The translations under genes and the position numbers were made by a program. Source: a virus (lineage: Duplodnaviria > Caudoviricetes). From it: 64,000 nucleotides of DNA. The DNA is taken from the IMG/VR virus record IMGVR_UViG_3300029928_000003. One strand, 5' to 3'. This document shows, in pieces, positions 19,214-61,763 of the stretch; position 1 is the stretch's first letter, and every line of letters starts with the position of its first letter. The notes beneath the pieces are model-generated. The model did not search any database. It worked only from the letters and a program-made list of their open reading frames with translations, and was not told where the DNA came from.

Positions 19214-22200
19214 TTAAGCTTGTCTTAAAATAAAGCTTCTGTAAGGCGCAAATACGCCTATTCCGGCATCAATACATAAGTATTAGTAGACTATATCTTT
19301 AATTTAATCCAAATATTTATATCGAAATCCCTTCGCAAATTCATCTCTTCCTTGTAATACATGAATCATTCCAGATCCATTAATTCTTTTACATTCTGTT
19401 AAGGATTTATATTTTTCTAATAAATTCCAATTTTTATCAAATTTCCCAACTGGGCGAGATTTTCCATTTTTTGGACATATTGAAGGCATCTTATCTAATT
19501 TTTCAAAACTCCATTGAAAATTTCCAGCAGTACGTTTTAATTTAATTGCAGTATATATATTGCTTGTTATTCCAAGGGCTTTCTTTGCCTAAGTCATATT
19601 AGGATAAGAAGCAATATAATTTCCATTTAAATCATACTAATATACTTCAAATGATTGGACGGACTCGCTTCTTGATGTACTGTATTTTTGGGAATAGGTT
19701 ATTGTAAAATATTTATTCTTACAAATTCCACCAGTTTTGATAGCAACTGAAAGATTAGAGCTATTAATTTTTAAAATTTCAGAAGCTTTCTTTATAGATT
19801 CATAACAGCATTCAAAATTTCCATCAAGTCCATACTAAAATACTGGAATTTTACTATGGCCTTCATATTGATGCATTTTAGATAAATCTAATTTGTCGTA
19901 TTTTGTTTTAGTCCAAAAAAATCCACAACATTTATGTTTGTTTATCAAAGCTCTTTGTATTGATTTTAAGTTTCTATTAATTTCAATAGAAGCTCTTAAT
20001 ATTGACTAATGTTCTTTTAAAAAATTTCCATCAGCATCATACTAATATACTTTGATTCTCTGTAAAATCTATCCCCCAACTTTACCTCCTAACGCCATAT
20101 TATATACATCATTCCGTTTTAGAAACTCTTCCGTTACTATATTAGCTTCTAAATCGAAAGCATCTTCTTCATTATCAAATATAGCAATAGTATTCCTTAT
20201 GAATTTATCAGGACCATATTTTTTTAAAGCATAATGAAATAAATTTTTACTATGCTAATACGTTGAAGGGCGATTCGCGTATGCACCACATCCCAGATAC
20301 TAATCAAAATAATCTGGGTTAGTCATGTGTACTCCGATATAAATTTTTTTATTGATAGTATTTGTTGTACAATATACTATCCATTTTAAATTATTATTCA
20401 TTTCGATTATATTTTTAAATTAATATATCTACGGCGCACTGCCTAGTCGTTGAACTTTCTTATTATTACTGCCTAAAGGCACTTAAATAATATTTAGCTG
20501 CTGATTGTCAAAAGAAATTATTTTTTAGCGATTCATAAAGATATTGTAGCATAATTTCCGTTTAGGTTTTCCAGCAATTAGAATATTTTTTAGATGGATC
20601 GTGCCGATTATTCAACCCATCATTATCAGCTTAGAACCTGCTACTGGAGAGCTAACTACTCCCGATTCTACTCCTGAAAGGCCGCCTACACCAGGATACT
20701 TTGATGTCATGATGTCTGCACCTTTAAGTGAGAACATAGCAATTGCGGGTTTACCGCTAGCAAGGTCTGCCGTTAAATCAATGCACATTCCATAACCCTT
20801 ATCACCATATTCACGAGTAAATGTACGATCCACCGTAAATGTGATAGAGTTACCTGCAAATTCATAAGTCGAGAATGTTGCACCTACTTTTACGTAGTTA
20901 TTTGCAGCTTTAGAATACATATAAGTACCATCTGTCTTGAAATCAGCCAGATAATGACCTAATGTATATTGAATATCATTCCACAATTTTTCATTGCAAA
21001 TGAACATATAGTGATTTCCAGTAGCTTTTTCAGCCTTCTCGTTCATTGTCTGCATTATTGTGTGGAATACCTCAACAGTAGGCTTATCGTTATATACATA
21101 CTTAGATGCAAAACGTTCTACTTGAGGGATCAATCCGTCGCCAATATAAATCAATTTTGTTAGTCATTAAGTTTCCTTAATGTTCAGACTATATCTTTAA
21201 CTTAATCAATATATTTAAAAATATACCCACCTGTTGTTTTTCTTGTACCATTACATACTTTTCGACAAGCTGGAAATTCTTTTTGACATGCAGAAATCGT
21301 ATCCCAAATCTTTATAAGATTTCCATCTTTATCATATTGAGCTATTTTAATAGGAGTTAATTGTCTTTCTTTATAAATTGGAATTATATTATCTTTTTCA
21401 TAACTCCATTTGTACTCAGAACAACAAGATTCATTTTTGATAGCTCTTATTATATTTCCAGTACTTGTATTATTTTGTCTAGCTGCTCAGATAAAGATTC
21501 ATATTCTTTATCAAATTCTCCAGTTTTTAAGTACCTGTAAACAACAGTTTGATTTCTCAATTTTCTAGAATTAATATTATTAATAACTTCATTTATATCA
21601 TCATTAGAGTGTAGAAAATAATAACCGCTATATTTATGCTTTTCGTAAATTGCACTATTAATAGCTTTAAAATCTAAGTCCAATTTTTGGGAAGTTTCTT
21701 TAGCAGTCCTAAAAGAATTTAATAACATTCCTTCAGAATTATATTGAAATACTGCTTCTCTAGCACTTAATCGGTATTCTTCTATATTTATTGCATCAGA
21801 CTCAGACCAATAATTATTATTAAAACTTCTTTTATCATTAATACACATTATTATTCTGTCCTTATTACAATTAAAAGTTTTAGTAATACTTATAATAGAA
21901 TCCCATTTTTTAATAAGATTTCCATCAAAATCAAATTGATAAATTATTTTAGATCGGGTTGGAGAGATAAATCCTCCCAAAGTCATATTATAAGTATCTT
22001 CTCTTTTAATAAAGCTTTCATTAACTAATTCTGCTTCTAATTTAAATGCTCCCTCTGCAGAATCAAAAACTTTAAAAGTTTTTCTAATAAAATTTTTAGG
22101 ACCATATTTTAAAATAGCATTATGTAAATGATATTTAGTTTTATTATAACTTGATGGTTTATTAGCGTAAGCACCACATCCTAAATACCCATCGAATACA

Positions 22201-24779
22201 TCAGGATCTTCTGTTTTGTGCACTCCAATATAAATTTTATTATTAATTTTATTAATTGTTTGATATACTATATATTTCATAATATTGTTAAGTTAGTTCC
22301 CATTTCCACTAAAAAGTGTACGATTAAATAATCTAGTCGTTAAACCTCTATCTCAACTACCTATTGGCCTGTTATATGAGATATTTGGCTGCTGATTGCC
22401 ATATCCGTAGATTTAGGTTTCCAGCAATTAAAGAACTTTATTTGTATAAGCCTCTCGACTTACCGACCCGTTTATTAAGCGGCGAAACTTAGTAAAAATT
22501 CAGGTCTACCAGTATCTGGATCACAGATTGTGGCCTTACCATTAGCGTCAATATTAGTTTTATTGAATAACAAACCCTGGTTACGCGAAACAAGGAAGTT
22601 ATCAAGGAGTTCTTTCTCCTTCTTATTCATTTTATAGATTGTTTCACTAAGACAACCTTGATTCTTGCCTTCTGCAATGCTTACAAATACATCTTCATGA
22701 GCAGCATAAAGCGAAGACCACGAGATATCATTACGGAATGTAGTAATATAATTGCGATGCTTCTCAATATTGCTTTGGCTCTTAACGTACCCTTCTTCAG
22801 AAAGTTCGGGCATTGCATTAGACTAGAATCTTGTAGTCATACCGACCTAACATCCTGATAAATCAAGTTCAGATGAATAATCATTATCAATTAAGCGAAC
22901 AACTACCTCCCAGTAATCCATTTTATAGACTATATCATTTATTAATTTTAATTATATTGTCTTTAAAGTATTTATTACCTTGTAATAAATCTTTAATATT
23001 CTTTTTAGATAAATCATAATCTTTTTGTAAATCTTCAAGATTACTATATTTTTTTATAAAGTTACCATATTTATCATATACACTTATACCCTTATTAGTA
23101 CATTGTGGCTCTAAATAAATATAGAAATCTTGATACTTATTATGATATTCTTCAAATATCTTACTTATTTTGTTCCAAGAATGTAATTTAATTATCTTCA
23201 TTAATTCTTTTCCTTTGCACTTTGTAATAAAATTCATATCAGAATCATATACATAAAATTCTGCACTTTTATACCTAGTCCTAGGTTTAGAATAGAATAG
23301 ATCACACATTTTGGTAGAAACAAAATATTCATTATCTATAAGATTTTGAGATACTATATATTTCATTAATTCTTTAATATCTAATTTAAGATATTTAGCG
23401 CAACTAAGTTTGGAATTAAATTCTCTTAATAGTTTACCATTCTTACTATATACATAATAATAATTAGAATAAGTTTTATTTATAAATTCATTCAGTTTTA
23501 TTTTATTATTAGTACTCCAATACGAATCTAGAAATAACACTTTACTATTAACCGCTGATTGAAATTTAAATGCAGAATAACCATAAAAAGATTCTGCTTC
23601 TCTGTAATTAGTCCATTTTTTAACTAATAGTCCTTCTTTATTGAATTGATAAATAGGAATATTTACGTGATCAATAAAAGTATTAAAAGTTCTAGCAGAT
23701 TTAATAAAGTCTTTATTTAATAATTGATCTAATTTATTATATGCTTCTTGTTCATTATCATAAACATATAGTACAACTCTTTTAAATTCTTTTGAACCGT
23801 ATTTCTTAACTGCACATTGTAAAGGCGTTTTCGGGTATTTAAAACTAGAATTGGAATTAATCCAACACCCTGCACCTATATAACCATCAAACTTATCTGG
23901 GTTTTCTGTTTTATGCACTCCTAAATAAATACGATTATCTCTTAAAGAGATAGTTAAAAAGACAATATATTTCATTTAATAATTCAGTTTTTTAATTTAT
24001 TAATTTATAGGTTTCCCTTAGTCGTTGAACATTTCTATATAATATAGATATGCTGCTGATTATCAATTTGACTTTCCAGCAATTTAAAGAATTTATTTTA
24101 AAGCGAGACAATTAACTGGGTTGTTTATCACGCTTTCTGGTAGGCCTACTAACTACTATGCACTGTTGCATTGTTGCATCAATTTTAAAGATATCATACT
24201 TCTCATAGTAGCGTTCCTTAAATGCCATTACAATTTCGCCGCCATTCTCACCAGTTTCCTGGGGAACATCTGCGAATTCAATACGTTTAATAAAGTTAGT
24301 TTCTACTTCCCATTCAAACATCATTGAATCTACTGATTGGAACTTATTTGCTCCCTTTACATCATTATAGAAGATATTCTTTAATGATTCAGTAAGATAT
24401 GTAGCGGTGTTTTCAGGATAAAGGCGTGATACTACGCCAAGCTTATGAGGGCGTGCGCCCAAGAACTTATAGAAATCTTCATAAGTTCTAGTTTCTGACA
24501 TCGTAGGTCTATTCAATATTGTTATCCTGTATCTTTTTAATTATACAGTTCTATTAGTTTACCATCCTAATAGTTCAGACTATATCTTCTATCTTCCGCG
24601 CTCGTGTCAATATTATTGATTGAGCTATCTCAATTGTTAGTCGTTGAACCTATTTCTTACTTCTATGCTCTTCAGAAAGTTGGCTGCTGATTACCCAAGA
24701 AATTATGAGGGAGGGTTTCCAGCAGTTCACGGAATTTAACGTCACCAAATAGCTCAGTGACAAAATTTGCAACTATCAT
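19214..24779 (-). CDS. Major capsid protein, 5 exons (24756-24779, 24127-24513, 22502-22918, 20614-21151, 19214-19269; 473 aa spliced)
   Basis: Exons join in frame: MIVANFVT|NRPTMSETRTYEDF..RKRD|DYWEVVVRL..DPDTGRP|IYIGDGLIPQ..LIMMG-Y|AGIGVFAPYRSFILRQA*; 1422 nt; each junction is U|...G| with P1/P10 pairing. Confidence 0.9.
19270..20613 (-). mobile_element. Group I intron 4 of major capsid gene
   Basis: P1 GATGGGTT/GATCCATC; P10 TGCCG/CGGCA; core TTGCTGGAAA, AATCAGCAGC, GTTCAACGACTA, AAGATATAGTCT; splits a Tyr codon T|AT. Confidence 0.88.
19304..20401 (-). CDS. Intron-encoded GIY-YIG homing endonuclease with NUMOD1 repeats (TAG-recoded)
   Basis: WIVYCTTNTINKKIYIGVH..YLGCG..YNMALGG; several VYQYD-type repeats with Q encoded by TAG; 365 aa. 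Confidence 0.85.
21152..22501 (-). mobile_element. Group I intron 3 of major capsid gene
   Basis: P1 GACCU/GGGTC; conserved core motifs; terminal G at 21152. Confidence 0.88.
21202..22280 (-). CDS. Intron-encoded GIY-YIG/NUMOD1 homing endonuclease, frameshifted near 21486
   Basis: MKYIVYQTINKINNKIYIGVHKT..; the 276-aa frame stops at 21450, while a shifted frame continues AARQNNTS..IAQYDKDGNLIKIWD..GYIFKYID* to 21202. Confidence 0.8.
22919..24126 (-). mobile_element. Group I intron 2 of major capsid gene
   Basis: P1 AAAGCGTGAU/GTCTCGCTTT; P10 GATTACTGGG/CCCAGTTAATT; core motifs; very short 3' end (GATATAGTCTATAAAATG). Confidence 0.85.
22935..23975 (-). CDS. Intron-encoded GIY-YIG/NUMOD1 homing endonuclease
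   Basis: MKYIVFLTISLRDNRIYLGVHKT..FDGYIGAG; IYQFNKEG and VYDKYG repeats; 346 aa, no TAG. Confidence 0.85.
   Translation of the reverse strand: MKYIVFLTISLRDNRIYLGVHKTENPDKFDGYIGAGCWINSNSSFKYPKTPLQCAVKKYGSKEFKRVVLYVYDNEQEAYNKLDQLLNKDFIKSARTFNTFIDHVNIPIYQFNKEGLLVKKWTNYREAESFYGYSAFKFQSAVNSKVLFLDSYWSTNNKIKLNEFINKTYSNYYYVYSKNGKLLREFNSKLSCAKYLKLDIKELMKYIVSQNLIDNEYFVSTKMCDLFYSKPRTRYKSAEFYVYDSDMNFITKCKGKELMKIIKLHSWNKISKIFEEYHNKYQDFYIYLEPQCTNKGISVYDKYGNFIKKYSNLEDLQKDYDLSKKNIKDLLQGNKYFKDNIIKINK
24514..24755 (-). mobile_element. Group I intron 1 of major capsid gene (ORF-less, 242 nt)
   Basis: P1 GTCACU/GGTGAC; P10 AATAG/CTATT; core CTGCTGGAAA, AATCAGCAGC, GTTCAACGACTA, AAGATATAGTCT. Confidence 0.9.
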
Positions 24780-24800
24780 AATTTCTTATTTAAAATGTTC

Positions 24801-25859
24801 TTAATCTAAATCATCAATACTTAGATGATTCGTTTTTTTGTTTTGTTTATAAACGGTAACTGGTTTTTTATTCATCTCTTTAACTTTTCCAGCTCTTGCG
24901 TCTGCAACCCCTTTATTATAAGAGTCCCTACGTACTTGTGTAACTGAATGACGAACGTAATCCGAAATATCGTCCAACATTTGTTCTCCATGTAAAGCAA
25001 ACCAAGCCATTCTTGTTAAGATAGCTGGATCATTCATTGCTTTACCTAAGATACTTACACCGGCTTCGTCTTGTCCTACAATAAAGTCATAAAGTTCTTC
25101 TTTATCATTATTGTCCATATTAAGATCAAAGCCATTAAACTCATTAAAGTTTATTACCTGATCTCTAATTGCATTTGCAAACTGGTTAAACTGCTCTTGC
25201 TATTCTTGTTGCTACATATACTGTGCATACTGTGCATTTTCATCTTCTACTTTTTTATATTCATTACGAATAGCTTCAACCTGTTTTTTAAACAAAGTTT
25301 CATTAGATTTAGCCTTATCTAAGGCTTCTTGAATCTCATCATCCGTTATGTTGTTTCTACCCATTCGTGAAATAAGATCTGTCGCAAAGACATCTTCGTC
25401 ACTGAACTAATCTATATTATATACTGGTTCTGAATTGGCTTGCAAATTTTGAGCGTAATAATTTGCACCCTGATTAGCAACATAATTTAGATATTCTTGA
25501 GGCGACATCCTACTATTACGAATAGCTGAAATTAATTGTTGTTCAGACTAATCTAAAGAACTATTATTTGTTTCAAGATTATGCAGAATAGAAAGCTTTT
25601 CATTAGATCCAAGTGAATCCCAATTTACTTCTTCCTCGCTGCCATCGTTATCTTCGTACTTAATCTTTGAAATATCAGAAATTCCTTTAGATTTTAAAAA
25701 CTCAGAAATAATCTCTCTATCGCTAAGATTCTAATCTTGCGAATCATCTTGATCCTAAGTATCGTAATTAGATACTTCTGATGTATCTTGAGTTGTGGTA
25801 TCTTCACCCTAATTTTGATCGACTTCATCGAAATCAATATCATTAATTCCTATTTCCAT
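24801..25859 (-). CDS. Acidic helical protein upstream of capsid gene (putative scaffold)
   Basis: MEIGINDIDFDEV... 352 aa with TAG=Gln; D/E/Q-rich. Confidence 0.65.
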
Positions 25860-30396: not shown

Positions 30397-31986
30397 TTAG
30401 AGAATGTGCCAATCAATACCACCATCTACAACGAGATTTCCCTCTGCGTCAAGTCCTACATTACGAACATCATCAGATTTAAGTGCGGCAGTGCTCTTAA
30501 CAGCTGCTTCAAATACAGGATCAGTGGCTGTGCCAGTGTTTTTAACACCATTCTTAGCTGTAACAGATACAACATCACCAACATGATTTACACCGGCAGG
30601 AAGAGCAGTACGAGTAACATTTACTTTATAATTTCCAGTAGTAGTATCAAATGAAGCACCAACACCAGATACATAAGTATTTGCAGTTGCTTTATCGTCC
30701 GAAGCAATAGTAGGAAGTGCCTTAGTTTCACCAGTAAGCTTACCATCAGTAAGACTTACACTTGCTACATACTTATTAGCTTCAGCAGCAATCGTGCCAC
30801 TTACTGCACTTTTAGCAGTTGCAATAGCATCGTCAATACCTTTGGTCTGAAGATTTCCATCAGTACCAACAGTTAAGTACTTATCAGTAGTAAGATACTT
30901 AAGACTTACTGCATTATCTACTATATTAATAGCAGTACCACCAGTATAAACATCAACAAGACCATTTACAGGAATGTAAATAGGAGTTTCCTCTGCATTG
31001 GAAATAATGAGTTTAATGTACTTTTCACCTGCCTTAAGAGATGCATCAGCTTTTACATCATCTGCAGTAGCAGTAATAACACTACCAGACTTAACTACTA
31101 AGTCCTTAGGAATGTCAATAGCTACACCAACTTGCTTACCATTTTGCTTTACAACATAACGTTTAGCAACGCCAGTAGCTTCAGCATCAGTTTCTACAGT
31201 AACTACCGAAGAATCAACAGCTTCTTTCTTAGCTGTATTCATTGCAGTAATAGTAGCATACTTATTAGTAAATGCAGTATCATCAGCTAAACCAGCTTTA
31301 TCAAGATCAATAGTAACAGCACCTGTAGCACTATTTACACTAAGATGACTTCCATCAGCAACGGCTGCACTAGTTACTCCTGCATTAGCTGCAGCAGCAA
31401 TAGCATCAGCAACTGTACTTTTAGCACTATAGCTACCACCGAGTTTATCATCAATTTCCTACTTAGCTGTACTAATTTTGTTTTCCGTTTCTTCAAACTT
31501 ACTAGCTAATCCAGAAACCTGACCAGTAGTAATTTCACCTACAGCAAGACTACCATCAGTATCTACAATAGTAGTACCATCAATAGCTAACTTAACTTTA
31601 GCAGCACCAGTAGTTGTAGGAACAGTTAATGCGGTAGTAGTGCCTTCAGCAGTACCAATAGAGGTTACACCAGCTTTAGCTGTAGCGGCATTAACCTTTT
31701 CAGTTAAATCGTCAACAGCCTTCTTTACTGTATTAGTACTATCAAAACCAGTACCAATTTTACCATCAACTCCAGCAATTGCGCTTGTATGATCAGTAAT
31801 ATTAGATTCAGCTGTACTTAATCTGCCGTCAAGACCGTCAATTATACTGTCATAATCAGAAATAGGATTACCTTCATCATTATAAAGTTTGTAAACCTTT
31901 CCGTCTTTGTCAGTTGTAAAAAACAAACCACCTACTGCTTTAGCTTTTTTAGCGGCTTCGCCTTTGTAAAATATAACTTTTGCCAT
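30397..31986 (-). CDS. Tail/head fibre protein (529 aa)
   Basis: Fragments 31459-31986 and 30397-31242 joined through 2 TAG; A/T/G/V-rich; GVTSI-type repeats. Confidence 0.7.
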
Positions 31987-44862: not shown

Positions 44863-45152
44863 GATTTATTTATATTATGAGTACATAAATCATCTGGTTC
44901 ATATTTATAACCTGTAAAATATTTAACCAGATCAAAATGTCTATCTCTAAGTTCTTTTTTAATAAATTCTAAAAAATGCTTATCGTCTAGATCTGCTGAA
45001 ATAGTAATAGGCATATCTGGTTTATTAAAACCCATTTTTAAAGTATATCCATTAGGTAATTGAACTACTTTTATATTACCTATGTACTTCTTGTGATAAA
45101 TATCCTATACGGCTTCTAGGATCGCTTGTTCCAGTTTCTGCGTAGTCATCAT
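44838..45152 (-). CDS. Small conserved protein between terL and portal
   Basis: MMTTQKLEQAILEAVQDIYHKKYIG..; overlaps both neighbours. Confidence 0.65.
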
Positions 45153-48100
45153 AAGCATTAAACTAATTATTATTTTGAATAGAATTTTTTATTTTGGGTA
45201 TTTTACCTTTTCTTTTATAACCAAATTCATCAATATAGTATCCAATATCATACCATTCTTCATTATTATTAGAAATTTTTCTAGGTATAGTTCCAGATAA
45301 TTCTTCATCTGCTAGCATTGCCATACCAAATGCGGCAATAATATCAAACTTACGTTTATTCTCGTCAGTATACCTGTTTAATTCGTCAAGTATTTCTTCA
45401 AACCAAATCTCATGACAGTAATCATTTACATAATCTGCAATAAGATCAGTTTGGTGTGAAATAATCGTAGATGTGGCTGGGGTACCATATTGACTTGTTT
45501 TTCCCTTAGTTATGTCTGTTAAAGTAGCCCTAGGTCTCTTCATAAAGTACTATAAATAATGCTAATTTCTAGCCCAACCTAAAAGACTTACACGCGTTGC
45601 TTCAAGATTAATTAAAGCATTATAATATTGAGCTAACTTAATAGCTATTTTGTGAGCATCTCTTAAGTCATTTGGCCTGTCTTTATAAAGAGCTACTATC
45701 TATGGATTCTATAAGCCATAGACTCTTTTATATACAACTATACAAAAATCTGAAGGATCTCTTGTAAATTCTGAGGTTTGACTTGCTCCAATATCTATAC
45801 CGTCAATACCTATTACATATAATCCCTCCATTTCTTCTACTTTAGGTCTTATAATGTTTCCAGATTCCTCATCTCTTATTGGTTCTAATGTCCATAAAGG
45901 ATGTTCTAATATTTTTAATTTACTAGTAGGATCTGGTTTCCATTGAATTCCAGTAACATTTTGTTGAGTATGTATATTATTTTTAAAAATATATTCTAAT
46001 CGCCCAGCTTCTATCTTTGGGCATTTCTTTAAAACTCTTATCTAAGCTAATTGCTCAGCTATATTTACTTTATTAAATTTATTATCACCTTCAAGATTAA
46101 ATGCTTCTTCTGGATTGTAACAATACTCGGCAGCAAAAGTTATTAATTCTTTAGGACTATCAATAAATCTAGCACGTTGTTTATCGTAGTATTCTTTTCC
46201 TTTTTCTGGGGAGGTATATCCACGATTATCCATATACTCTCCTTTTACAATAGAAAAAGCTGGAAGGAAAAAACCAGTTAAAACTTCTTCTCCTGTTTGT
46301 GAATAGTGGTGTTTATAAGGTAAGACATTAAAAGCGTTTGGGTCATAGAAAATTGTTCGTAAACCTTCTAATTTGGCTCCTGAATCGCCTCCAGTCAATG
46401 TGTTATCGTTAAGTTTTTTATCTTAACTTCTTATAATTTGATTTTTATAAGTTCAGCGTACATTTTCATTTAATTAAATGTCGGGCACTCTTGCTAGTAT
46501 TATATTCTTAATAAGTTTCAACTAGTACGCGTTACGGTGACTAATATTATTACATATTAGTTTACCTCGGTATTCCCATCGCAGGGTTCACCGATTTTGC
46601 CCAATTTTAATGCGGCAAATTTATTAATATATATATTATATTTACGATCCAAATATATTGTAGCATTTTTATAAAGTAGATCTGCGGCTCTATGTGCTTT
46701 ACTAGTACTATAACTTAATCTGTAAGTATTTTTATTACAGTTTGTTTTCTACATTAGAAATCCTTTTCCTAAGTATTTCTATACACCCTCTAAAAAATTT
46801 TTAGTACCGACTATTAATAAGGATTCTTCTAATTTTGGGTTCTTTTTACTATGAGGATATACACCTAAAGAACCGTTCCCATCTACATATCCACGTATAA
46901 AATCATATATTAACTATCTATTTTTAAAAATATTGTCCGGCGGAAATGTTAAAATTAAAGATTTGTTTGGAACACATCCTTTAGATATTAGACTATTCCA
47001 TAACTATTCATTTGTTATCTATGTACTTACCATATACATAGTATCTCCATTTTTGTCAGTATGTTCTTTACTTCCAAATTGATAGGTTTCAGTTATATTT
47101 AAACCTTTTTTGTAATTTAAAGCCTTATTATATTTTTTAAGATGTTCAATGTCTTTTAACGATATATTTAAACTTACTGTAAATTTTTTTGCACAAACAC
47201 AGCCATTAGCATACATAAATCCTAACCAATATGCCTTTTCTTCCGTATCAATAACATCAAAAAAATCTTTATTAAATTCGGATTTATTTCTATTAGCAAC
47301 AATTTCAATATTATTAATTTTTAAATATTTAGTAAGAGTTTTTCTATTAATACCATATTTGGCAGCTATAGATACAATACTTCTATCATATATTGCAGTA
47401 TTCAAGTATTCCTAAATTGCTAAAGCTATTACCTACTTTTTGTATTCTGTTTTAGAAACCTCTTCTATATTATTAATTTTTAATTCATCTACAGCTTTAT
47501 TTAAATTACTTTTATTGTTAATTCTTTTTATAGAAAGTCCTTTACTTTTTAAAAAATTACTTATAGTAGAAATACTTATTTTATATTGCTTACTTAAAGT
47601 AGTTAAACTAATTTTATTTTCTTTATATATTTCAAATATTTTATTTAATCGTATATTACGTTCTTCTTTTGTCATACCAGTTATTTTTAGTATTTAAAAT
47701 GTACTTGTTAATAATATATATATATAATAAACTATAAGGTTATCTACCGCCTATAACCTTATAACCGAACTATTCACCCTAAATATGTATTAAAGCATCT
47801 CCTTGAATAAAAGCTTTAGTAGAATTTAACCAGCTTCCCCCCTCTTCATATAAAAGTAAATCACAACGATCACCTCTAATTTTATTAGGGGTGTCTGCGA
47901 TAATTCCTTTAATTACGGACTTACTACCAGATTCAATGTCAATACCATTACGAGATTCTTTATAAGAAGCTTTTCTTTTCATAGCAGTATTAACTACTTG
48001 GGCTAACTGAGAAAAACCATTACCAGTACTATCATTCAAAAATGATAAAGCATTCCATACTTTAGATAGAGTATCTTCTACATATTTAGCTAAATTTGCA

Positions 48101-48777
48101 GCTATTACAGTATTTGAATTATTACGTACTGTATACATATTAGCTGCTAAAGACGCATTCATTTCAGAAAAACCTAATCCTCTGGCCTTCATTAGAGCTG
48201 CATTCTTTCTAAGTCTTTTACACATTTCCAGATAATGAAACCATTGATACTGGGCTACATAAAAATCAGGAAAATCAATAGCCCTGCCAACACCTGCTTT
48301 AGCTGTTTTGAGATTTGGTAATCTATAGAAATTTAGAAAGAAATAATGATCTCCAGTTATTGTATAACCATGAGAGGTCATACCATTTCTACATCTATCA
48401 AACTATGTATCCCAAAACTACTTAAATGCTCTAGATTTAAATTTTGCAGCACAATATTTTCCTGTTCTATTAAATGTTTCTCTAGTTTCTAAAAACCATC
48501 CTGGATTAAAATCTAATCCATGTGTATCATCAATTGGTTTATATCCTGTTAATTCATAAGAAAGAGTTGGATCAAAATACTCAATAGCAACTTCTTTAGG
48601 AATATCCCACTCTCTATTATCCTCTAAAGACTATTTAGCTTCTTGGATTACTTCAGTAATATCTGAATTTTCTTTATCCTTAACATCATCTATTATCTAT
48701 TGAATTTCTTGAGGAAGTTGTGTTTTACGCGGCCGACCCCTTTTGCGTTTAATTGGTTTAGTCTGGTCTATATCCAT
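45076..48777 (-). CDS. terL: Terminase large subunit, 2 exons (47746-48777, 45076-46395)
   Basis: Walker A MKARGLGFSE, Walker B LLLYEEGG, junction IGG|TGGD, nuclease YVIGIDGID..SDF..KFDIIAA. Confidence 0.9.
46396..47745 (-). mobile_element. Group I intron in terL with ORF in the P1 loop
   Basis: 5' exon ends GGCGGU, putative IGS GCCGC at 46616-46612, core AAAATCGGTGAA..ATACCGAG..GTAACGCGTA..GTACGCTGAAC, terminal G at 46396; P10 pairing is weak. Confidence 0.85.
46557..47675 (-). CDS. Intron-encoded HTH + double LAGLIDADG protein (both catalytic Asp changed to Asn)
   Basis: AYWLGFMYANG and FIRGYVDGNGS motifs; 372 aa open with 7 TAG=Gln. Confidence 0.85.
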
Positions 48778-61440: not shown

Positions 61441-61442
61441 AG

Positions 61443-61763
61443 TCGGGGTAGAGAGACTTGAACTCTCACTTATGGTTTTAGAGCTAATTGTTCTGTAAAG
61501 ATTTTTTATTCTTTACTTCTACAACTTCTTATTAATTGTAGTTCAGCATACGTTTTAATCCAAAATATTGGATTGGGAACACTCGTGGTAATATTATATT
61601 TATTCAATTACTATGCGTTACATTACTTTTTGACCTTTCGCAATTCAAAAAGTTAACTCGGCATTGGCATCACAGCTTTTACCGATTTTGCTCCCTACAG
61701 CTATTATATTACTATAATAGTGGGCCTCTTGACCACCTTGCTAACCATTACAAACATACCCCA
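61443..61763 (-). tRNA. Amber-suppressor tRNA (anticodon CUA, Gln-like), exons 61732-61763 and 61443-61483
   Basis: Spliced 73 nt: acceptor TGGGGTA/TACCCCG, D-loop AATGGTTA, anticodon stem GTGGT/ACCAT with loop CT-CTA-AA, T-arm GAGAG-TTCAAGT-CTCTC. Confidence 0.88.
61484..61731 (-). mobile_element. ORF-less group I intron (248 nt) in the suppressor tRNA
   Basis: U|C...G| boundaries; P1 GTGGU/GCC(C)AC; P10 CTCT/AGAG; core collinear with the terL intron. Confidence 0.85.

Follow-up and report, generated by a model that had tools for sequence, protein, structure and literature searches.

Within a stretch of 64,000 nucleotides from the virus record IMGVR_UViG_3300029928_000003 (Duplodnaviria; Caudoviricetes), hereafter the window, the large terminase gene terL is interrupted by a group I intron that encodes P0001, a 372-amino-acid protein of the two-motif LAGLIDADG type. 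The residues at both metal-binding positions of P0001 are asparagine, and on the comparisons described below this state is real, recent and confined to the lineage of the window. We favor the explanation that P0001 derives from a homing endonuclease gene that is in an early stage of neutral or relaxed decay following the fixation of its intron, without having acquired a new role, and we assign this a probability of roughly 0.55. An earlier reading of the window, made from the letters and a list of open reading frames (ORFs) and referred to here as the sequence-only reading, had proposed that the protein was retained for a non-nucleolytic role, as a candidate maturase or regulator; we weigh this and other alternatives after the evidence on the protein, its intron and its recent evolution.

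Asparagine at both metal-binding positions

The window is AT-rich (30% GC) and uses TAG as a sense codon, and nearly all of its long frames are open only if TAG is translated as glutamine. Under this code the intron ORF is an open frame of 372 amino acids with exactly seven TAG codons. Its product matches PHROG 4645, annotated as 'endonuclease' (E-value 2e-52), and Pfam searches gave a weak LAGLIDADG_3 match together with several weak matches to helix-turn-helix (HTH) families, including at residues 9-41 and 87-121; helices in the AlphaFold2 (AF2) model, which was built from 120 homologs, also support HTH-like repeats in this region. The model has a mean predicted local distance difference test score (pLDDT) of 87.7, its order of secondary-structure elements fits the LAGLIDADG fold, and its two LAGLIDADG helices (H145-157 and H254-267) end at N157 and N267, respectively. 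A phmmer search of P0001 against PDB sequences returned nothing useful, and it was the fold search that gave the relatives: Foldseek placed I-AniI, I-Tsp061I, the bI3 maturase and the I-OnuI family on top, with E-values of 1e-9 to 1e-6 and a probability of 1.00 for I-AniI, I-Tsp061I and the I-OnuI family. Judged from this model, P0001 is a monomeric two-motif LAGLIDADG homing endonuclease by fold and descent, but not as an active enzyme. Translation, alignment and the model agree with the sequence-only reading as to the intact frame, the seven TAG codons, the N-terminal HTH-like repeats and the two asparagine codons.

In this family each LAGLIDADG helix closes, at its C terminus, with an acidic residue (Asp or Glu) that binds metal and has been described as essential (PMC6294521, PMC3384342). 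Database searches with P0001 returned 2129 hits, indicating a large family, and the motif columns were scored in the 120 best cluster representatives. Each metal position is Asp in 118 of the 119 aligned representatives other than P0001, the exceptions being two singletons, one changed (to Asn) in motif 1 alone and the other changed (to Gly) in motif 2 alone. These two proteins (P0033 and P0088) lie on short contigs, and it is possible that they are natural nickases, cases of early decay, or sequencing errors. Related loci in IMG/VR were gathered by an alignment query, which recovered 80 loci at 31-83% identity (a single-protein query gave only 2), and both positions are Asp (D/D) in all 79 that could be assessed. 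The nearest relatives, P0002 of locus L001 and the protein of locus L015, are 85-89% identical to P0001, occupy the same terL site and are D/D. Asn at both positions (N/N) was found in just two protein sequences, the 372-residue P0001 (61 collection blocks) and the 390-residue P0121 (30 blocks), each recovered from many independent samples, and the N/N loci are approximately 99.9% identical to one another. Because many independent assemblies carry an identical N/N protein, this state is not a sequencing error, and because the closest relatives are D/D and the N/N loci so nearly identical, the double loss of Asp is recent and lineage-specific. Conservation of the asparagines among homologs, to which the sequence-only reading had looked, was not seen; the homologs carry Asp.

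Both Asp-to-Asn changes are G-to-A transitions. The same replacement at the same motif position is found in D20N I-CreI and D22N I-MsoI, whose activity in vivo falls about 10^4-fold (PMC2655683), although these are laboratory mutants of homodimers, whereas the change in P0001 is natural and affects both motifs of a monomer. Given the inactivity of these mutants, P0001 is very probably nuclease-dead, and on this point the sequence-only reading holds up well. Other parts of the active-site surroundings are retained: the lysines of the beta1-beta2 loops, K163 and K277, are present, each being the commonest residue of its column and a candidate counterpart of K43 and K130 of I-DmoI, as is D265, which lies two residues before N267.

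The terL intron and its ribozyme

The frames that flank the intron are the two halves of a large terminase, with their best annotated matches among Crassvirales TerL proteins. Uninterrupted TerL sequences of relatives (cr1_1 and MT835470) align straight over the junction ..FG(Y/L/T)..G^TGGD(S/E/Q)G.. (the caret marks the insertion point here and below), and by this alignment the conserved G^TGGD site is where the intron interrupts terL, in a crAss-like phage that has recoded TAG to Gln; the sequence-only reading had likewise placed the intron in terL. The splice sites read GGCGGU^A...G^ACU, with U as the last base of exon 1 and G as the terminal intron base, and the exons join in frame to restore the TerL seen uninterrupted in relatives; on the DNA, the insertion site of the window is GGCGGT^ACTGGAGG (GGCGGT^ACTGGA). 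An internal guide sequence (IGS), GCCGC, pairs with the end of exon 1, GCGGU, forming a U.G pair at the splice site. A hairpin of the window with the 5' splice site in its loop was considered as P1 and rejected, as it is not conserved in relatives.

Comparative folding with RNAalifold used eight sequences, namely the 3' 224 nt of the window terL intron, six terL introns homologous to it and the tRNA(CUA) intron of the window (see below). The consensus fold has 50 pairs, 31 of them with compensatory changes, and comprises P3, P4, P5, P6/6a, P8, P9 and P9.1 together with an additional helix, between P7 and P3', that suggests subgroup IA. The pseudoknot expected of a group I intron is made by P7, in which, by eye, GCGUAC/GUACGC of the terL intron covaries with GCAUA/UAUGC of the tRNA intron. 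These features point to a group I intron of the IA-like, self-splicing type. The ribozyme core of the N/N intron has no broken helices compared with its D/D sisters. The Rfam group I model (RF00028) matched neither the terL intron nor the tRNA(CUA) intron, even at E<=10.

The ORF and the ribozyme overlap, such that the 3' end of the ORF is read through the guide sequence and P3-P6 (within 46396-46619) and the last approximately 21 codons double as strands of the IGS/P1', P3, P4, P5 and P6. This overlap accounts for the C-terminal tail of P0001 (residues 359-372), which has pLDDT values below 50 and yet is highly conserved in sequence, since its codons also encode ribozyme strands. It also suggests that, on a single RNA molecule, ribozyme folding and ORF translation should be mutually exclusive.

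Table 1 Features of the window considered in this analysis, with positions counted from the first nucleotide of the 64,000.
Feature	Position	Strand	Basis
terL exon 1 (ends ..FGYKVIGG)	47746..48777	-	alignment to uninterrupted TerL
terL exon 2 (starts TGGDSGAKLEGL..)	45076..46395	-	alignment to uninterrupted TerL
Group I intron, 1350 nt, IA-like with P7.1 helix, ORF in P1 loop (L1)	46396..47745	-	exon alignment, comparative folding
Ribozyme core, IGS to terminal G (P1' strand, P3-P9.1)	46396..46619	-	comparative folding; P3-P7 pseudoknot by eye
IGS GCCGC, within ORF (..KFAALK..)	46612..46616	-	read from sequence
Intron ORF (P0001), two-motif LAGLIDADG protein, 372 aa	46557..47675	-	translation with TAG=Q; phrog_4645; AF2; Foldseek
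N-terminal HTH-like repeat region (residues 1-125)	47301..47675	-	Pfam, AF2 helices
Junction of 54-nt in-frame deletion (18 aa), flanked by CTAAAA direct repeat	47450..47456	-	comparison with P0121 and all close relatives
N157 codon AAT, metal-binding position of motif 1 (..LGFMYANG..)	47205..47207	-	alignment; sister codon GAT
N267 codon AAC, metal-binding position of motif 2 (..IRGYVDGNG..)	46875..46877	-	alignment; sister codon GAT
Suppressor tRNA(CUA) gene	61442-61763	-	ARAGORN, introns allowed, lower threshold
ORF-less 248-nt group I intron in tRNA(CUA) anticodon loop, same core as terL intron	61484..61731	-	comparative folding

The suppressor tRNA(CUA) gene was recovered by ARAGORN only when introns were allowed and the threshold lowered; a default run on the window reported no tRNA. 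The sequence-only reading had described its intron as related to that of terL, which is borne out by the shared ribozyme core. In P1 of the tRNA intron the exon sequence GGUGGU pairs with the guide GCCCAC, compared with GGCGGU and GCCGC in terL, and P1 thus appears to covary between the two introns. A further ARAGORN prediction, a 'tRNA-Ser' with a 715-nt intron at 30741-31533, was disregarded as spurious, as it lies within a long ORF (30397-31986).

All close relatives carry the terL intron at the same site, and no intronless TerL more than 79% identical was found within the content of the database; on this distribution the intron appears to be fixed in the lineage of the window and its nearest relatives. 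The nearest uninterrupted terL is that of locus L098 (L098:1487-1547), with 79% amino acid identity over exon 2. Its insertion site reads GGAGGA^ACTGGC, with synonymous codons different from the GGCGGT^AC(T/A)GG of all intron-bearing alleles, a difference that could reflect co-conversion or a P1 requirement in the intron-bearing alleles, or a resistant empty site in L098. A search of IMG/VR with the P7-P7.1-P3' signature recovered at least 114 viral stretches (loci L099-L178), sometimes with two matches per locus. In the fetched loci, 48 of the 72 ribozyme matches that could be assessed have no P0001-like ORF immediately upstream, so this ribozyme type commonly exists without such a protein in cis, although it is possible that a helper acts on these ribozymes in trans. 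On the evidence of the signature search this is a widespread type of phage group I intron, which RF00028 leaves unmatched in both of the copies tested.

Selection on the reading frame and competing explanations

Pairwise dN/dS (the ratio of nonsynonymous to synonymous rates) between the window and its sister is 0.16, the same as across the family. As this value averages over both lineages, we used lineage-specific counts of nonsynonymous and synonymous changes (N:S), obtained as relative-rate differences with three outgroups and with the sister clade comprising stem plus tips. For the whole gene, N:S is 19:13 in the window lineage and 12:32 in the sister clade (Fisher p=0.009); the corresponding counts are 8:1 and 7:8 in the N-terminal HTH region (p=0.08) and 11:12 and 5:24 in the LAGLIDADG core and tail (p=0.03). 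Changes unique to the window or to L001 tell the same story, as the nonsynonymous ones number 18 and 4, respectively (p=0.004), and the synonymous ones are equal (11 and 13). The window branch is about twice the length of the sister path. Ten of 18 changes on it are GC-to-AT transitions, the class to which GAT-to-AAT belongs, and three to five of the 19 Asp residues changed to Asn, which by these counts is the commonest kind of change on the branch.

The window copy has in addition lost 54 nt in frame (Table 1), taking the turn and recognition helix from the middle of three HTH-like units. P0121 retains these 18 residues and is otherwise identical to P0001, which places the deletion after the Asp losses; the deleted form is now the commoner N/N allele. 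This deletion is visible against P0121 and the relatives, and not from the window sequence by itself. Together, the counts and the deletion indicate relaxed constraint on the N/N lineage, with the accessory HTH DNA-binding arm the most strongly affected. The sequence-only reading had taken the intact frame as a sign of retention for another function; the frame is indeed intact, but the excess of nonsynonymous changes over the D/D sisters and the loss of an HTH unit are what relaxed selection would produce.

Loss of homing endonuclease function after fixation is the standard expectation of the homing cycle (the Goddard & Burt model; PMC1654191), and we suggest the following course. A LAGLIDADG homing endonuclease gene is lodged in the P1 loop of an IA-like self-splicing intron in terL; with the intron apparently fixed both here and in the closest relatives, nothing would select for homing any longer. 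Both metal-binding aspartates were changed to asparagine by G-to-A transitions in the lineage of the window alone, very probably with loss of DNA cleavage, and constraint has relaxed, foremost on the HTH arm, of which one unit is already deleted in the allele of the window. That no frameshift or stop has appeared so far would be explained by how recent the catalytic loss is. What the window shares with degeneration in the homing cycle is an apparently fixed intron, lost catalytic residues, a raised nonsynonymous rate and the deletion of part of an accessory domain.

Several observations nevertheless weigh against simple decay. No stop or frameshift occurs in any recovered copy of the ORF, the sole indel is in frame and there is no truncation, which departs from what is expected of a degenerating endonuclease gene. 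Among strongly conserved residues, losses are limited to the two metal ligands, a more targeted pattern than random decay predicts: of 99 columns with at least 90% conservation, 95 are kept in P0001, and another departure, S168, also occurs in the D/D sister. The 17 replacements other than the two Asp sit at variable columns or give residues that are seen in homologs. (H198Y, at one time counted as a third 'forbidden' change, was dropped, as more distant homologs often have Tyr there.) The lysines K163 and K277 are kept. The nonsynonymous fraction on the branch, 19 of 32, though raised relative to the sisters, is below the neutral expectation of 0.73-0.81 (p 0.004-0.08, depending on the mutation model), although this average also covers the time before the loss. 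Once the first catalytic Asp had been hit, the chance that purely neutral decay would strike the second and spare other conserved residues is, by a rough estimate, 1-10%, although Asp-to-Asn is the commonest kind of change on this branch. Within the N/N population there are two synonymous and no nonsynonymous differences, too few to weigh and a count biased by the retrieval of exact proteins; the population is too clonal for selection after the Asp loss to be measured from it.

These same features lend some appeal to an alternative close to the sequence-only reading, in which P0001 is kept as a non-cleaving, RNA-binding maturase for the terL intron and perhaps also for the tRNA(CUA) intron, which we regard as possible but doubtful. 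Besides the intact frame and the confinement of strongly conserved losses to the two metal ligands, the LAGLIDADG core remains under the neutral level along its branch, TerL can be produced only if an intron carrying a large L1 insert is spliced out, and decay of the HTH DNA-binding arm with the core kept would be consistent with a change of target from DNA to RNA. Maturases a few point mutations away from endonucleases have a precedent in a passage of PMC3384342 that cites Szczepanek & Lazowska 1996, and bifunctional I-AniI and the bI3 maturase are among the closest folds, but this Foldseek likeness is a generic likeness of fold, as the I-OnuI family scores nearly equally. No positive evidence of RNA binding was found, and N:S in the core is about fourfold above that of the sisters. 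The ribozyme core, moreover, keeps all of its helices, with compensatory changes, and is not degenerate relative to the D/D sisters, contrary to what dependence on a helper would lead one to expect, and at least two-thirds of the related ribozymes that were sampled, the tRNA intron of the window among them, have no such ORF directly upstream; both observations count against the maturase candidacy. We know of no LAGLIDADG maturase from phages or bacteria. Within this alternative, the narrower proposal that P0001 is a phage LAGLIDADG protein just past the switch to a nuclease-dead splicing cofactor, serving the terL intron and possibly the suppressor-tRNA intron in trans, seems to us improbable. 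The sequence-only reading had gone further and envisaged a positive feedback loop in which P0001 helps to splice the suppressor-tRNA intron and itself depends on that tRNA to be translated. This subset of the cofactor proposal we judge hardly credible: the two introns share one ribozyme core and the ORF has its seven TAG codons, but TAG is equally present in the D/D homologs and in terL itself, so these codons are not special to P0001, the core of the tRNA intron is complete, a strict mutual requirement would block start-up, and no evidence of any maturase activity was found. Beyond the shared ribozyme type, nothing we found speaks for the loop.

It may also be that the loss of cleavage was itself selected, either because a nickase left after the first Asp-to-Asn change was harmful or because off-target cleavage was costly, and that the protein survives as a DNA binder, for example one that occupies the intronless terL site of co-infecting relatives. 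That both catalytic aspartates were struck and other conserved residues spared would fit such a history, as would the much larger number of assemblies in which the N/N lineage is found compared with its D/D sister P0002, and one mutated active site in a single-chain enzyme can indeed leave nicking activity (D22N mMsoI, PMC2655683). We nonetheless consider this improbable. The genome of the phage itself offers no cognate, uninterrupted terL site, which leaves a DNA-binding regulatory role without an obvious target; no off-target site was identified, and the tRNA insertion site resembles that of terL only in the GG(C/T)GGT on its 5' side. The HTH arm, furthermore, is the fastest-changing part of the protein and has lost one unit, which argues against selection for DNA binding. 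It is more improbable still that P0001 remains an active endonuclease or nickase in which Asn or neighboring residues hold the metals. The rest of the active-site surroundings (K163, K277 and D265) is kept, but Asp is effectively invariant over about 200 homologs, the acidic residue is described as essential to metal binding (PMC3384342, PMC6294521), and the same substitution in I-CreI and I-MsoI costs about 10^4-fold in activity in vivo (PMC2655683).

Related systems, neighboring introns and significance

Early decay of a homing endonuclease and the acquisition of second functions both have known counterparts, with which P0001 can be compared. Delta/Zeta crAss-like phages recode TAG, are very rich in introns and carry LAGLIDADG ORFs within group I introns of their core genes (Yutin et al. 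2021, PMC7886860). The window resembles them in that its TerL matches Crassvirales terminases and TAG occurs within both the host gene and the intron ORF; it differs in that TerL of the Delta group typically carries inteins, whereas terL here carries an intron, and in that no catalytic-site loss is described there, whereas the endonuclease of the window has Asn at both positions. Precedents for second functions include I-AniI, the domesticated WhiA and the repressor role of I-TevI (PMC3384342). I-AniI is bifunctional, and the yeast mitochondrial bI2 and bI3 maturases have lost endonuclease activity (PMC3384342; PDB 1p8k, 2ab5); P0001 shares with them a monomeric two-domain LAGLIDADG fold, a location in a group I intron and nuclease loss by very few substitutions. 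Those proteins are mitochondrial, however, with splicing shown and introns that need help, whereas the ribozyme of the window looks self-sufficient and P0001 has an extra N-terminal HTH arm. WhiA/DUF199 likewise joins a LAGLIDADG scaffold without acidic catalytic residues to HTH DNA-binding modules, but it is encoded by an old host gene outside any intron, and has its HTH at the C terminus, remodeled surfaces and lost catalytic lysines, whereas P0001 is a very recent derivative, still within its intron and with decaying N-terminal HTH units.

Other introns are evident in the window and its relatives. A different group I intron at 24551-24780 (minus strand), between ORFs 24801-25859 and 24112-24516, is the sole RF00028 match in the window (65 bits). 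Near it lie two TAG-free ORFs, 22935-23975 and 21450-22280, which look like further intron-borne nuclease genes; they were rejected as paralogs of P0001 because they carry NUMOD1 rather than LAGLIDADG, and no paralog of P0001 was found elsewhere in the window. The D/D sister locus L001 has an extra ORF of 289 amino acids (L001:1473-2342) with a faint LAGLIDADG_3 match, upstream of a 140-amino-acid ORF (L001:2435-2857) that directly precedes the P0002 gene, and this may mark a second intron in exon 1 of terL, without a counterpart in the phage of the window.

P0001 is distinguished by its clean and recent double catalytic loss. Natural snapshots of a homing endonuclease right after catalytic loss are uncommon, and the active-looking sisters at 85-89% identity, together with two dead alleles one deletion apart, offer a clean natural pair for testing function after cleavage is lost. 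For annotation, intron ORFs of this kind should not be assumed to encode active nucleases, and the Rfam group I model misses a widespread type of phage intron. Should P0001 aid splicing, maturases would be extended to phages; if it were indeed a splicing cofactor, it would be, to our knowledge, the first LAGLIDADG maturase outside organelles, and intron splicing would be linked to code switching. If it has no role in splicing, it would illustrate the homing cycle clearly, and would do so in a group of phages that is abundant, intron-rich and code-switching.

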